DNA of 24,206 nt from Escherichia coli (GTDB lineage Bacteria > Pseudomonadota > Gammaproteobacteria > Enterobacterales > Enterobacteriaceae): assembly GCF_003334315.1 (NCBI RefSeq), contig NZ_QOWR01000065.1. The stretch is one strand, 5' to 3'. Positions 393 to 20,622 of this stretch are shown piece by piece; the first letter of the stretch is position 1; each line of letters begins with the position of its first letter. The translations under genes were made by a program, and so were the position numbers. The notes beneath the pieces are model-generated. The model was given only the letters and a program-made list of their open reading frames with translations, did no database searches and had not been told where the DNA came from.

Positions 393-419
393 TAAAAAAA
401 TCCCCGCCAAATGGCAGGG
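393..419 (-). terminator. Rho-independent terminator of cspA
   Basis: On the minus strand, CCCUGCCA-UU-UGGCGGGG forms an 8-bp stem with one G-U pair, followed by a run of seven U. It sits about 30 nt downstream of the cspA stop. Confidence 0.7.
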
Positions 420-448
420 ATCTTAGATTCTGTGCTTTTAAGCAGAGA

Positions 449-661
449 TTACAGGCTGGTTACGTTACCAGCTGCCGGGCCTTTAGCGCCGCTTTCGATG
501 GTGAAGGACACTTTCTGACCTTCGTCCAGAGATTTGTAACCATCGTTCTGGATAGCAGAGAAGTGTACGAACACATCTTTAGAGCCATCGTCAGGAGTGA
601 TGAAGCCGAAGCCTTTGTCAGCGTTGAACCATTTTACGATACCAGTCATTTTACCGGACAT
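449..661 (-). CDS. cspA: Major cold-shock protein CspA, 70 aa
   Basis: Translation [70 protein letters not shown] carries the cold-shock domain RNP motifs KGFGFI and VFVHF. Full-length ORF. Confidence 0.97.
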
Positions 662-803
662 AGTGTATTACCTTTAATAATTAAGTGTGCCTTTCGGCGA
701 TATGGCGTGCTTTACAGATTTTGAAGCGTTAAAGGAATGTGCACTACGAGGGGTATCAACGATAACTCTTGAAGGGACTTGCCTTACTACACTGCTTTAA
801 TGG

Positions 804-814
804 TCTGTACGTCA
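804..814 (-). promoter_or_regulatory. cspA 5'-UTR cold box (TGACGTACAGA on the coding strand)
   Basis: Exact 11-nt cold-box motif at the 5' end of a roughly 160-nt leader upstream of cspA. The cold box is an established feature of the cspA leader. Confidence 0.7.
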
Positions 815-828
815 AACCGTTGATGTGC

Positions 829-941: not shown

Positions 942-1232
942 CTATTCCATCAACTGCTTACTTAATGCCGGGTTGGCTTGAATCAAACGCATCAATTTTA
1001 GTTCGGCACTTGAAGGCTTCACGCGTCTGGATTCCCATTCCTTTACCATGGCGACTGATACGCCCAAAACCCGGGCGAAATCATCGATTTTTAATCCTGT
1101 CCCTTTTCGTAACTGCTCAATTTCGGTACAGGACGTTGTTCTGTGCGTCAGGGTAATTTTCTGCGTTTCATCTTTAAAAACAATCTGTTCCAGGCTGCTC
1201 AACAGCTCATGCATTGGATCTTTATATTCCAT
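942..1232 (-). CDS. yiaG: XRE-family helix-turn-helix transcriptional regulator YiaG, 96 aa
   Basis: Full-length 96-aa ORF with an HTH region (LGVSVAMVKEWESRR). Position between cspA and yiaF matches K-12. Confidence 0.85.
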   Translation of the reverse strand: MEYKDPMHELLSSLEQIVFKDETQKITLTHRTTSCTEIEQLRKGTGLKIDDFARVLGVSVAMVKEWESRRVKPSSAELKLMRLIQANPALSKQLME

Positions 1233-1665
1233 TGAAAACTCCTCAAATCACACTGCGGGATCGTGAATTGCATCGAAGCTCATTAAGAATAGTCGGGAAA
1301 AGCAGACACAGCGGGGTGAAGTCAGGGCATGCTCTGGCTATGATTCGATTCAGCCTGTCATTTAGCGTGACTTATAGCCACCTAACGATCTGATAAATGC
1401 CGATATATCTCTTACCACTCCTGTTTTGTAAAGATTTCGAAAATCTAACCTTCTGCGAAGGCGTAAATCTCTGGCTACAAAAAAGGCAACGGCACTATCA
1501 TTTTTTAACAATGAAACAACAAATTAACCTTGTTTCATTTTCTCCATGATTTTACCAGGAAGATTACGTAGAAAGGGTATCCTGCAAGCCTGTCCTGGAC
1601 TATCCTTGTCACGTCAGACACGCGTGTGTCGTTGTGCGCTTTTTTTGGGTGAAAGGAGTAAGAAA

Positions 1666-2376
1666 ATGGCGACAGGAAAGTCCTGCTCTCGCTGGTTTGC
1701 GCCTCTTGCGGCGTTATTAATGGTAGTTAGCCTGAGTGGGTGTTTTGATAAAGAAGGCGATCAGCGTAAAGCGTTTATCGACTTCCTGCAGAATACAGTG
1801 ATGCGTAGCGGTGAACGTCTACCAACCCTGACTGCCGATCAGAAAAAACAGTTTGGTCCTTTTGTCTCTGATTACGCGATTCTGTATGGTTATTCTCAGC
1901 AGGTGAATCAGGCGATGGATTCCGGTCTGCGCCCGGTTGTAGACAGCGTTAACGCAATTCGCGTACCGCAGGATTACGTTACGCAAAGCGGTCCGCTGCG
2001 TGAAATGAATGGTTCGCTGGGTGTGCTGGCGCAACAACTGCAAAATGCGAAGTTGCAGGCCGATGCTGCGCACTCTGCGCTAAAACAGAGTGATGACCTG
2101 AAACCGGTCTTTGATCAGGCATTCACCAAAGTGGTAACGACGCCAGCTGATGCATTGCAACCGTTGATTCCGGCGGCACAAACTTTCACGCAACAACTGG
2201 TGATGGTTGGAGACTACATTGCCCAACAAGGTACTCAGGTGAGCTTTGTCGCAAATGGCATCCAGTTCCCGACTTCACAGCAGGCAAGTGAATATAACAA
2301 ACTGATTGCGCCATTACCGGCACAGCATCAGGCGTTTAATCAGGCCTGGACTACAGCAGTTACTGCAACCCAATAA
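1666..2376 (+). CDS. yiaF: Lipoprotein YiaF (DUF3053 family), 236 aa
   Basis: AAGGAG at 1653-1658 precedes the ATG at 1666. The N-terminus MATGKSCSRWFAPLAALLMVVSLSGC has a signal peptide and an LSGC lipobox. The ORF-track start at 1546 is an in-frame upstream extension without an RBS. Confidence 0.85.
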   Translation: MATGKSCSRWFAPLAALLMVVSLSGCFDKEGDQRKAFIDFLQNTVMRSGERLPTLTADQKKQFGPFVSDYAILYGYSQQVNQAMDSGLRPVVDSVNAIRVPQDYVTQSGPLREMNGSLGVLAQQLQNAKLQADAAHSALKQSDDLKPVFDQAFTKVVTTPADALQPLIPAAQTFTQQLVMVGDYIAQQGTQVSFVANGIQFPTSQQASEYNKLIAPLPAQHQAFNQAWTTAVTATQ

Positions 2377-2425: not shown

Positions 2426-3400
2426 TTAGTCCGCGACGTGCGGATTCACACAGTTCTTCTCAACCTTTCCTTGTAACGCATCAATCAAATTATCCACGGC
2501 ACAGGCGGCCATGCCATAACGCGTCTCATGGGTGGCAGATCCAATATGCGGTACTGCGACGACGTTGGCCATTGAGAGCAACGGCGAATCTACGGACAGT
2601 GGCTCTTGTTCGAAGACATCCAGCCCGGCAGCGTGAATTTCGCCTTTCTGCAATGCTGCGATCAGTGCATTTTCGTCAACCACCGGGCCACGTCCGGCAT
2701 TAATGAAAATGGCGGAGGATTTCATTTTGGCGAATTGTTCTGCGCCAAACAGATGATGCGTCTCATCAGTTAACGGCAGGATCAGGCAAACGAAATCTGA
2801 CTCTTGTAACAGAGTATCCAAATCGCAGTAGCGGGCGTTGAAGCGTTCTTCTGCTTCTTTATGGTGGCGGCGCGCGTTATAGAGGATGGGCATGTTGAAG
2901 CCAAAGTGCGCACGTTGTGCCAGCGCCATGCCGATCCGTCCCATCCCGACAATGCCCAGTGTTTTATGGTGAACGTCAGTGCCGTACCAGTCCGGGCCTA
3001 TGCTCGCGGTCCATTCGCCTGCTTTTACCCGTTCTGCTACCTCCACAACCCGACGAGCGGTAGACAACACCAGCGCCATCAGCGTATCGGCGACGGTTTC
3101 TGTTAATACGGTTGGCGTGTGCATCAGCAGAATTTTTCGGGCGGTAAGCGCATCGACATCAAAATTGTCATAGCCGACGGAGATCGTTGATGTGGCACGC
3201 AGTTTCGGCATTTTTTCCAGCAATGCGGCATTTACATTCTCGTTTGAACCCAGTAAACCTTCAGCTTCGGCAAAAATTGCTGCATTTTGTTCGACGGTTT
3301 GTGGGCTGAGGTTTGCCACCTGGTGAACGGTGAAATGCTCTTGCAGGCGTTGCAGTAAATCATCAGGTAAGGCTTTGTAGAGGATAACGGACGGCTTCAT
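2426..3400 (-). CDS. ghrB: Glyoxylate/hydroxypyruvate reductase B (2-ketogluconate reductase), D-isomer 2-hydroxyacid dehydrogenase family, 324 aa
   Basis: The NAD-binding motif [16 protein letters not shown] and catalytic region are recognisable. Start set at MKPSVILYK (3400) with GGAGAG upstream; the ORF track begins 4 codons earlier. Confidence 0.9.
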
Positions 3401-3467
3401 GCTTCTCTCCATTCACTGATAAGGCGATCACCTTAGCCTGAAATATGATGAAGGAAAACTGAAGAAT

Positions 3468-3503: not shown

Positions 3504-4163
3504 TTACAGCGGGCTTAAGGTAATTTCTACACGGCGGTTTTGCGCCTTACCTTCTGCGGTGCTGTTGCTGGCGATTGGGTTAGCCGGGCCAAGGCCCTGA
3601 GTACGGATGCGGCTGGCGTCCACGCCCTGGGTGATCAACGCGCTGGCAACGGAATCCGCACGTTGCTGGGAGAGACGCATGTTCAGGTCGTGACCACCCG
3701 TGCTGTCGGTATAACCAATCACGTTAACCGCCGTTTTCGGATACTCTTTCAGTACCATTGCCACGCCGGTCAGGGTGTTAGCGCCCGCCGGTTTCAGGGT
3801 CGCGCTGCTGCTGTCGAAGGTCACATTGTTCGGCATATTGAGGATAATGTTATCCCCGCTGCGGGTTACGCTAACACCAGTGCCGCGCATTTTGTCGCGC
3901 AGCTTCGCTTCCTGCACATCCATGTAATAACCAACGCCGCCGCCCAGAGCTGCGCCTGCTGCTGCGCCAATCAGCGCGCCTTTACCGCGATCTTTCTTCG
4001 AAGAAGAGAGCGCACCAATACCCGCGCCCACGAGAGAGCCCAGACCTGCGCCGATAGCAGATTTACCTGCTTCGCGTTCGCCGGTGTAAGGGTTAGTTGT
4101 GCAGCCAGATACCGCCAGAGCGCCACTCACTACGGCGGCAATAAGATAAACACGTTTCTTCAT
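3504..4163 (-). CDS. yiaD: OmpA-family peptidoglycan-associated lipoprotein YiaD, 219 aa
   Basis: Signal peptide with lipobox (LAVSGC), a glycine-rich segment, and a C-terminal OmpA-like domain (NMRLSQQRADSV, NRRVEI). Confidence 0.88.
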   Translation of the reverse strand: MKKRVYLIAAVVSGALAVSGCTTNPYTGEREAGKSAIGAGLGSLVGAGIGALSSSKKDRGKGALIGAAAGAALGGGVGYYMDVQEAKLRDKMRGTGVSVTRSGDNIILNMPNNVTFDSSSATLKPAGANTLTGVAMVLKEYPKTAVNVIGYTDSTGGHDLNMRLSQQRADSVASALITQGVDASRIRTQGLGPANPIASNSTAEGKAQNRRVEITLSPL

Positions 4164-12017: not shown

Positions 12018-12351
<334 letters not shown>

Positions 12352-12352
12352 C

Positions 12353-12438
12353 GTAGGCCTGATAAGACGCGTCAGCGTCGCATCAGGCAAATGTGCCGGC
12401 CATTGTCGGATGCGGCGCGACCGCCTTATTCGACCTAC
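12353..12438. repeat. REP elements (BIME-like pair of palindromic units)
   Basis: GTAGGCCTGATAAGACGCGTCAGCGTCGCATCAGGC, followed by a degenerate unit ending GCGGCGCGACCGCCTTATTCGACCTAC. Both resemble E. coli REP palindromes. Confidence 0.6.
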
Positions 12439-14648: not shown

Positions 14649-14820
14649 TGCCTGATGCGCTCCGCTTATCAGGCCTACGAAAATTCTGCAATGTATTGAA
14701 TTTGCACGATTTTGTAGGCCGGATAAGGCGTTAACGCCGCATCCGGCATAAACAAAGCGCACTTTGTCAACAATCTGTATACCCGGTGGCGCTGTGCCTC
14801 TGCGTGCAGCGCCATCCGGC
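14649..14820. repeat. BIME: cluster of about three REP palindromic units between dppA and dppB
   Basis: TGCCTGATGCGCTCCGCTTATCAGGCCTAC (about 14649-14687), GTAGGCCGGATAAGGCGTTAACGCCGCATCCGGCA (14714-14748), and CCGGTGGCGCTGTGCCTCTGCGTGCAGCGCCATCCGGC (14782-14820). Confidence 0.75.
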
Positions 14821-20506: not shown

Positions 20507-20574
20507 AGAGAAAACCCCCGCACGTTGCAGGTATGCACCTGACAACACCACGGGGGCTAATCTTGACTCTAGAC
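20507..20574 (-). ncRNA. rdlD: Rdl antisense RNA, antitoxin of the ldrD type I toxin-antitoxin pair
   Basis: The minus strand reads GTCTAGAGTCAAGATTAGCCCCCGTGG...GCGGGGGTTTTCTCT, a stem-loop ending in a U-tract, upstream of and antisense to the ldrD leader. Ends are approximate. Confidence 0.6.
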
Positions 20575-20622
20575 CACTCAAGAATAGCCGCGAAACGTTG
20601 TCATTACAACACAGGCGGCTAT

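Follow-up and report, generated by a model that had tools for sequence, protein, structure and literature searches.

The palindrome and T-run upstream of yiaF in Escherichia coli as a possible 5′-leader stem-loop

Genes and features at the locus

The window is the whole stretch of DNA analysed, 24,206 nucleotides of Escherichia coli (NCBI RefSeq assembly GCF_003334315.1, contig NZ_QOWR01000065.1), and according to the list of open reading frames and the RefSeq annotation it covers the cspA-yiaG-yiaF-ghrB-yiaD region. The element described here is located just 5′ of yiaF, within the 433-bp spacer that separates yiaF from the divergent yiaG. Pfam PF11254 was found on the homologues of yiaF. Genes and features are listed in Table 1.

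Table 1. Genes and sequence features of the yiaF region, with positions given in the window.
Feature	Position	Strand	Remarks
cspA	449-661	-	ORF list, RefSeq
yiaG	942-1232	-	ORF list, RefSeq; XRE-type HTH gene, divergent from yiaF
-35-position hexamer TATCCT	1578-1583	+	TATCTT in most genera; 17-bp spacer; poor match to TTGACA
Predicted -10 CTATCCTT	1600-1607	+	sigmaS-like; hexamer TATCCT at 1601-1606, C at -13 and C at -8
Predicted transcription start	1611-1613	+	Most likely G1613, 7 nt after the -10; placed from the conserved -10
Leader hairpin A	1617-1630	+	GACAC 1617-1621, loop GCGU 1622-1625, GUGUC 1626-1630; -6.2 kcal/mol
10-bp DNA palindrome ACACGCGTGT	1618-1627	no strand	Read directly in the sequence
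Near-invariant UGCGC	1635-1639	+	T, G and G invariant, both C at least 90% (57 leaders); no proven partner
GCGC	1636-1639	+	Read directly
U7 tract (T7)	1640-1646	+	U-rich spacer between hairpin A and the Shine-Dalgarno sequence; read directly
Predicted weak SD-occluding hairpin	1635-1660	+	1635-1637 and 1639-1644 pair with 1651-1656 and 1658-1660; about -5.2 kcal/mol
Shine-Dalgarno (SD) AAGGAG of yiaF	1653-1658	+	7 nt upstream of the ATG; AGGAG invariant among 57 leaders
yiaF CDS	1666-2376	+	236-aa DUF3053 lipoprotein; start ATG 1666-1668; RefSeq annotates from the same ATG
ghrB	2426-3412	-	ORF list, RefSeq
yiaD	3504-4163	-	ORF list, RefSeq

The region was singled out by an earlier sequence-only reading, which noted a perfect 10-bp palindrome at 1619-1628 and a GCGC motif followed by seven T residues just upstream of the yiaF start, and suggested an operator, an attenuator-like structure or a terminator for transcription entering from upstream. 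The palindrome is present, but its position is 1618-1627, and the GCGC motif and T7 are found as described, at 1636-1646. The element had been thought to end about 20 nt before the SD; its end is in fact 6 nt from the SD, and the ATG at 1666 follows after 19 nt. An explanation of the segment as coding sequence, in which an in-frame ATG at 1546 would begin the old 276-aa ORF, was rejected, as the upstream part of this ORF contains indels and is not conserved.

Conservation of the segment upstream of yiaF

The yiaF loci compared were 80 from Enterobacteriaceae, one per species, together with 8 more distant loci; covariation and leader statistics refer to 57 distinct leaders. Approximately 90 bp immediately 5′ of the yiaF ATG (about 1577-1668) are conserved in the 80 Enterobacteriaceae loci, and the sequence farther upstream is variable. 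Within the species, 1590-1668 is identical in 5306 of the 5420 genomes of E. coli. In about 25 loci there is no yiaG within 1.5 kb upstream, and the block is just as well conserved in them, indicating that it belongs to yiaF. Conservation had been proposed as a check on the element, and the comparison bears it out, with one stem in the block showing compensatory changes. The sequence-only reading would have given the element up had the yiaF transcription start mapped downstream of it with no conservation; the element is conserved, and the predicted start lies upstream.

The U-tract is T-rich in all Enterobacteriaceae leaders, with interruptions in Citrobacter/Salmonella (GCGCATTTTT, AUUUUU) and Kosakonia (TTTTAT), and is absent from Rosenbergiella, CwR94 and a metagenomic locus with 50% identity.

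Neither the palindrome nor the T-run is unusual as a class. Perfect 10-bp palindromes number 20 in the window, where dinucleotide shuffles give 28.7 ± 5.5, and runs of T7 or A7 number 9, where shuffles give 8.9 ± 4.6, so both occur at chance frequency. The exact 10-mer ACACGCGTGT has an expectation of 0.03, which makes it as rare as any other chosen 10-mer. The feature that exceeds chance is the conservation. Folding of the E. coli region as a single sequence gave energies no better than those of shuffled sequences (z = +0.07, -0.10 and +0.40). A repeated extragenic element of the REP type does not fit the copy number, with the sequence found in a median of one place per E. coli genome and a maximum of two. 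No relevant Rfam match to the leader was found at the gathering score, nor at E ≤ 10 in searches of 1233-1720, and a literature search by sequence string returned nothing relevant to the element.

Predicted promoter and transcription start of yiaF

The most invariant stretch of the block is ACTATCCTTGT (1599-1609). It includes the predicted -10, in which ACTAT, C and T are invariant in the 57 distinct leaders. The -35 position falls in a conserved GGTATCYTG block, where the hexamer TATCYT lies exactly 23 nt upstream of the -10, corresponding to a 17-bp spacer. This combined -35/-10 pattern occurs once in the window, against an expectation of 0. The motif ACTATYCTT is kept in Shimwellia, Mangrovibacter, Erwinia, CwR94 and metagenomic loci with protein identities of 50-71%, and the 23-nt register is retained in Erwinia, CwR94 and a metagenomic locus. 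Rosenbergiella has the -10 CTCTATTCT in the arrangement TTGGCG-N17-TATTCT.

A decamer of like type, GACTATTCTT, is found on the minus strand upstream of yiaG (1285-1294), and the yiaG promoter serves as a sigmaS-specific reporter (PMC5116933). Given the conserved -10 and the similar decamer at this sigmaS-specific promoter, 1600-1607 can be read as a sigmaS-type -10, and the yiaF promoter is most likely a conserved, -35-poor promoter of the sigmaS type. Its resemblance to known promoters of this kind (KCTAYRCTT-like, with C at -13) includes the invariant C(-13), C(-8), T(-7) and T(-6) of CTATCCTT, a weak -35 and the same type of decamer upstream of yiaG. However, the likeness concerns the promoter adjoining the element and not the palindrome itself, and sigmaS dependence of yiaF is a prediction. 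From the position of the conserved -10, transcription is predicted to start near 1613, which would give a leader of approximately 53 nt. Readings of CTGGACTATCCTTGT as a sigma54, sigmaE or sigma32 promoter were rejected on sequence only, because the spacings do not fit when judged by eye against the consensus sequences: GG-N9-G is found and not GG-N10-GC, the spacer is 11 nt and not 16 nt, and CCCC is absent from the sequence.

A conserved stem-loop near the start of the predicted leader

Near the start of the predicted leader is a small stem-loop, hairpin A, whose conserved form is GGCAC-N4-GUGCC and whose E. coli version is GACAC-GCGU-GUGUC. Over the 57 distinct leaders, 95.8% of cells in the stem are paired. 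The first pair is GC in 53 leaders, GU in 2 and AU in 2, and the second is GC in 36, GU in 12 and AU in 7. The A-U form is found in Escherichia, Phytobacter massiliensis and Klebsiella grimontii, and G.U intermediates occur in Citrobacter, Salmonella (including Salmonella arizonae) and Klebsiella/Raoultella. As G.U pairs are possible only in RNA of the + strand, the register of hairpin A makes sense only as + strand RNA. Cells in which both partners have changed number 9, against 3.1 ± 1.4 in shuffles, and none of 500 shuffles reached 9; this control ignores phylogeny, and related sequences can exceed it without any structure. When the partner strand was slid to other registers, 18-71% of cells paired, against 92% for the hairpin A register.

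Variation within Escherichia is in the loop (GCGT, GCAT, ACGT), which leaves the stem intact and destroys or shifts the 10-bp DNA palindrome. The dyad is broken within Escherichia (ACACGCATGT, ACACACGTGT) and again in Citrobacter/Salmonella (CACGCGGGTG, CACGCAGGTG). An unrelated 8-bp hairpin occupies the position of hairpin A in Atlantibacter, and a different hairpin, GAGGCGGC/GCCGCCCUC, is found there in Erwinia. The stem is thus kept as a structure and not as a sequence. The selected object is the RNA stem, which is offset by one from the palindrome, and the 10-bp DNA palindrome is an incidental by-product of hairpin A, its CG-rich loop and a GT repeat. Folded as RNA, the palindrome register itself has an energy of +0.5 kcal/mol. 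The stem of hairpin A is only 5 bp, and RNAalifold yields a weak consensus energy of -1.25 to -3.3 kcal/mol.

Operator and absence of a separate function

These data bear on two of the rival explanations. A DNA operator would require a dimeric regulator, for example the divergent XRE-type YiaG, to bind the inverted repeat at about +5 to +18 and block transcription. The classical position for a repressor is indeed just downstream of a promoter, as here, and an HTH gene, yiaG, is adjacent and divergent in E. coli. However, it is not the 10-bp dyad that is conserved but the different register GGCAC-N4-GTGCC, which as a DNA site would have short half-sites of 5 bp around a 4-bp spacer. The 12 leaders with the asymmetric pair GGCAC/GTGTC form a G.U pair in RNA, but in DNA they have a mismatched half-site, and the block is just as well conserved in the approximately 25 loci where yiaG is not upstream. 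With the dyad broken in Escherichia and in Citrobacter/Salmonella, and the hairpin register kept, including in the 12 G.U leaders, the operator that had been suggested is most improbable.

The other explanation is that the hairpin and T-run have no separate function and are kept only because they lie between a constrained promoter and a constrained ribosome-binding site, in which case the apparent covariation would stem from phylogeny and the composition of the GT repeat. Palindromes and T-runs at chance frequency, fold energies that are not unusual, an alifold energy close to zero and a shuffle control uncorrected for relatedness are all consistent with this. Yet the changes from GC through GU to AU arose independently in at least 3 lineages, Escherichia varies in the loop alone, Atlantibacter and Erwinia have a different hairpin at the same place, and the slid-partner controls pair far less well (18-71% against 92%). 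Absence of a function is therefore decidedly doubtful.

Terminator and attenuator

A terminator for transcription arriving from upstream does not fit the gene arrangement. E. coli and most genera examined have a divergent gene upstream of yiaF. In Shimwellia, Erwinia and CwR94 the upstream gene is co-directional, and there a canonical terminator separate from the element is found ahead of the yiaF promoter. In either case a terminator for incoming transcription is unnecessary at the element, and this suggestion is not supported.

An attenuator could act on transcripts that begin at the yiaF promoter. It would consist of an outer helix, (A)GCGU/GCGC(U), formed around hairpin A and followed by the U-tract, and would make up a promoter-proximal intrinsic terminator at which a fraction of transcripts stop approximately 35 nt after initiation. 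Read-through would be set by a factor, for which Csp-type antiterminators, NusA/NusG or temperature are candidates. The run of at least 4-5 U immediately downstream that is characteristic of terminators is present, as the U7 at 1640-1646. A two-part hairpin ending directly at U6-7 is the minimum-energy fold of the first ∼40 nt in most other genera, with energies of -13 to -18 kcal/mol in, for example, Enterobacter, Klebsiella and Pseudocitrobacter (z of -1 to -2). Erwinia has a strong GC hairpin followed by UUUGCUU, and both UGCGC and the T-run are strongly conserved. In E. coli, a consensus scan calls a terminator-like site, GCGTGTG-TCGT-TGTGCGC (1622-1639) followed by T7. The stem of this site, GCGUGUG/UGUGCGC, consists of 3 G-C and 4 G.T pairs. 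It was rejected as a terminator: its energy is -3.2 kcal/mol, 274 of 500 shuffles are as good, and registers slid by +2 or -2 match equally well because of the GT repeat.

The E. coli leader also lacks a stable GC-rich stem within 0-2 nt of the U-tract, as hairpin A ends 9 nt before the U-run. For comparison, the neighbouring terminators of cspA and yiaF/ghrB have energies of -22 to -24 kcal/mol. The outer helix is 88% paired but has 0 compensatory changes, and its two outer pairs are unpaired in 12-15 of the 57 leaders. In Escherichia it is only 3 bp (CGU 1612-1614/GCG) and contributes just -0.3 kcal/mol, and, depending on the exact start, its 5′ arm may not be part of the transcript. In Citrobacter/Salmonella the first position of the T-run is not a T. 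An antiterminator structure or a leader peptide would not fit upstream, where only ∼4-5 nt lie between the predicted start and hairpin A and no upstream ORF is conserved.

The yiaF leader resembles the intrinsic and 5′-UTR terminators catalogued by Term-seq (Adams et al. 2021, PMC7815308) in having a hairpin and then U7 in a 5′ UTR, and in Enterobacter, Klebsiella and Pseudocitrobacter the hairpin (-13 to -18 kcal/mol) abuts the U-run. It differs in that the E. coli stem beside the U-run is either 3 bp or G.U-rich (-0.3 or -3.2 kcal/mol) and without covariation. The Term-seq tables for LB at OD 0.4, LB at OD 2.0 and M63 (PMC7815308) list the terminator of cspA and contain no 3′ end at MG1655 3718900-3719199, the position of the U-tract; this is weak evidence, as the tables give dominant ends only, and so short an RNA (∼35 nt), made from a gene of low expression, might escape detection. 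Northern blots detect yiaF mRNA as a full-length, monocistronic transcript (PMC3598666). Of the attenuator-like structure that had been suggested, the conserved RNA hairpin in the leader stands, and the terminator function is unconvincing, the terminator stems being without covariation and weak in E. coli. Attenuation at this site is accordingly judged unlikely.

Pairing of the U-run with the Shine-Dalgarno sequence

Control of translation would take a different form. UGCGC and the U-run (1635-1644) could pair with the SD region GAAAGGAGUA (1651-1660), and, in folds that take in coding sequence, CGUCA at the 5′ end (1612-1616) with UGGCG at the start codon (1667-1671), to give a closed initiation region that would be melted by temperature, as in a fourU element, or by a trans-acting factor. 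The SD hairpin is part of both the MFE and the centroid structure of the E. coli leader, where the pairing probability of the SD is 0.86, and folding of the Enterobacter and Kluyvera leaders likewise predicts the U-run:SD pairing. Conservation of the partner GGAGUA is at least 90%, also at the UA that follows the SD, and a distant metagenomic relative with CCCUUUUUU in place of GCGCUUUUUU can still pair with AAGGAG. For the 5′ end and the AUG region, 95% of cells can pair, with C-to-U and A-to-G changes that preserve the pairing. Both pairings are retained in more than 90% of cells, but through one-sided changes only, with no compensatory changes.

Any U-run beside a purine-rich SD will, however, be predicted to pair with it. 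When the part upstream was shuffled, the SD pairing probability was 0.61 ± 0.22, with 15% of shuffles as high as E. coli, and only 2 of the 57 leaders stand out from their shuffles at the ≤0.05 level. Citrobacter, Salmonella, Kosakonia, Yokenella and Atlantibacter have a low SD pairing probability (0.1-0.5). Warming from 15 °C to 45 °C is predicted to lower the probability only from 0.90 to 0.74. FourU thermometers of the Salmonella agsA type are similar in that the yiaF leader is short and has a first hairpin followed by a second, weak hairpin rich in A-U and G.U pairs, in which the U-run is predicted to pair with the SD. They differ from yiaF, where the pairing is indistinct from shuffles, is absent in several genera and melts only gradually by prediction, and no Rfam family, FourU included, matched the leader at E ≤ 10. 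The yiaF gene is not a known heat-shock gene. Translational control of this kind is quite unlikely, and the U-run:SD pairing in E. coli, as predicted by folding, is a possibility and not a finding.

The UGCGC motif has alternative partners, as it can close the outer helix with CGU 1612-1614 or pair with GAGUA 1656-1660. Pairing of UGCGC-U7 with the 5′ end of MicA was also rejected, as a chance match. The duplex energy, calculated with a MicA sequence verified by BLAST and Rfam, is -13.8 kcal/mol, a value reached by 35% of leaders after shuffling and by 31% of background windows.

A leader stem-loop as the favoured explanation

In E. coli, the element is neither an efficient intrinsic terminator nor a protein operator. 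The explanation favoured here, tentatively and with a probability of roughly 45%, is that the palindrome and T-run are part of an ordinary 5′-leader stem-loop of the yiaF mRNA, followed by a U-rich spacer before the SD. Transcription would start near G1613 from a sigmaS-type promoter with the -10 CTATCCTT, producing a leader of ∼53 nt, and 4-5 nt into the transcript the RNA would fold into the stem-loop GACAC-GCGU-GUGUC (1617-1630). Located so close to the 5′ end, the stem-loop would most likely shield it from 5′-end-dependent decay by RppH/RNase E in the manner of ompA, and may also organise the translation-initiation region. U-rich stretches just upstream of an SD typically aid binding of 30S and S1, and the U7 tract could be such a spacer, while being able to pair weakly with the SD. 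The sequence and its conservation, the covariation of hairpin A and the weakness of the terminator stems were shown, and the transcription start, the use of sigmaS and the roles in stabilisation and translation are inferred.

Stem-loops of the ompA type, located at the 5′ terminus, protect enterobacterial mRNAs from 5′-end-dependent decay by RppH/RNase E. The yiaF hairpin is similarly small, conserved and a few nt from the predicted 5′ end of an mRNA for an envelope protein, with a stem that is kept by compensatory changes and replaced elsewhere by other hairpins. By contrast, ompA has two hairpins in a far longer leader of about 130 nt; the stem in yiaF is only 5 bp, 4-5 unpaired nt precede it if the predicted start is correct, and its stabilising effect is predicted. 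Over the range of predicted starts (1611-1613), the 5′ overhang would be 4-6 nt; one of 4-5 nt is borderline for protection from RNase E, and the argument from 5′ proximity becomes weaker if yiaF transcription starts farther upstream or downstream than predicted.

The near-invariant UGCGC and the U-run go unexplained by a stabilising role alone.

Implications for yiaF

The significance of the element beyond annotation is small. The likely yiaF promoter is placed, and a leader of ∼53 nt with one stem-loop supported by covariation is defined, which is useful for the design of yiaF fusions and for the study of a Cpx-induced lipoprotein linked to biofilm formation and colonisation. The case also illustrates that a palindrome and T-run spotted by eye can be an RNA hairpin in another register, and not an operator or a terminator.

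It is quite improbable that the hairpin and U-tract together form a conserved conditional riboregulator of this Cpx-induced lipoprotein, behind a promoter that looks to be of the sigmaS type. Such a regulator could be a promoter-proximal terminator that is read through under stress, or an initiation region closed by the U-run:SD and 5′ end:AUG pairings and opened by temperature or a trans-acting factor, and it could be present across the Enterobacteriaceae and partly decayed in Escherichia. If one of these minority readings were true, yiaF would have one more small leader-based control element in the envelope-stress network, a class of element that is already well known.

Two published observations concern the regulation of yiaF, though neither has a direct bearing on the hairpin: yiaF is induced 5.9-fold through CpxR (PMC2731931), and RpoH holoenzyme binds somewhere in the yiaG/yiaF spacer in genomic SELEX (PMC5493296). 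In a search for CpxR boxes, the best match in E. coli was 8/10, at 1428-1442, outside the element, and a minority of genera have 9/10 matches around -190 to -200.

Putative promoter motifs of yiaG and yiaF

The divergent yiaG and yiaF genes are each preceded by a GACTATYCTT decamer (Table), and the two copies are arranged back to back with ∼310 bp between them. Judged by sequence, both resemble a sigmaS-type -10 element, and the yiaG promoter is known as a sigmaS-specific reporter (PMC5116933).

The spacer also includes a GTAAA-N5-CGAAA sequence (1428-1442) in which 8 of the 10 consensus bases for CpxR are present, and some Citrobacter, Kosakonia and Enterobacter loci carry CpxR-like boxes with a 9/10 match at about -190 to -200. 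A terminator-like hairpin on the minus strand (1448-1462) adjoins the GTAAA-N5-CGAAA box.

The yiaF leader

The predicted 5′-end of the yiaF mRNA, CGUCA (1612-1616), would be able to pair with UGGCG at the start codon (1667-1671). This pairing is retained in 95% of cells (56 distinct leaders) via C-to-U and A-to-G changes only, double changes being impossible because the 3′ side is coding. In the more distant Erwinia sp. locus L087, the yiaF leader starts with a hairpin, GAGGCGGC-GCAU-GCCGCCCUC, followed by UUUGCUU (∼520-560 of that locus). It is much stronger than the enterobacterial hairpin (in E. coli GACAC-GCGU-GUGUC, 1617-1630), to which its sequence is unrelated.

An ATG at 1546 is in frame with yiaF and would give a 276-aa ORF, the length of an older yiaF annotation. 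However, indels between genera show that the extension (1546-1665) is not conserved, and it was therefore rejected as coding sequence.

Transcript ends and other RNA elements

Published Term-seq data place an RNA 3′-end at ∼1250 on the minus strand (MG1655 3719460 +), within the yiaG leader and 18 nt 5′ of the yiaG ORF. Published data also map a BCM-sensitive (Rho) termination region to ∼2033 on the minus strand (MG1655 3718677 +), opposite to yiaF, which implies antisense transcription within that gene. The strong hairpin that the convergent yiaF and ghrB genes have in common, located between them, is probably a bidirectional terminator. RNA matches in the window were accepted at the Rfam gathering score.

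Table. Motifs and RNA elements in the window
Feature	Position	Strand	Basis
cspA thermoregulator	394-821	-	Rfam
GACTATYCTT decamer upstream of yiaG	1285-1294	-	sequence
GACTATYCTT decamer upstream of yiaF	1598-1607	+	sequence
yiaF/ghrB hairpin	2383-2407	both	-22 kcal/mol on either strand
tRNA then RtT RNA	12018-12262	+	Rfam
naRNA4	12356-12435	-	Rfam
ES036	14671-14713	-	Rfam
rdlD antitoxin RNA	20509-20574	-	Rfam
-10-like motif GGCTATTCTT immediately upstream of rdlD	20580-20589	-	sequence

An ORF at 68-262 on the plus strand has HokA toxin sequence at its end, and a K-12-like RefSeq record has hokA and the small gene ysaE annotated beside cspA.
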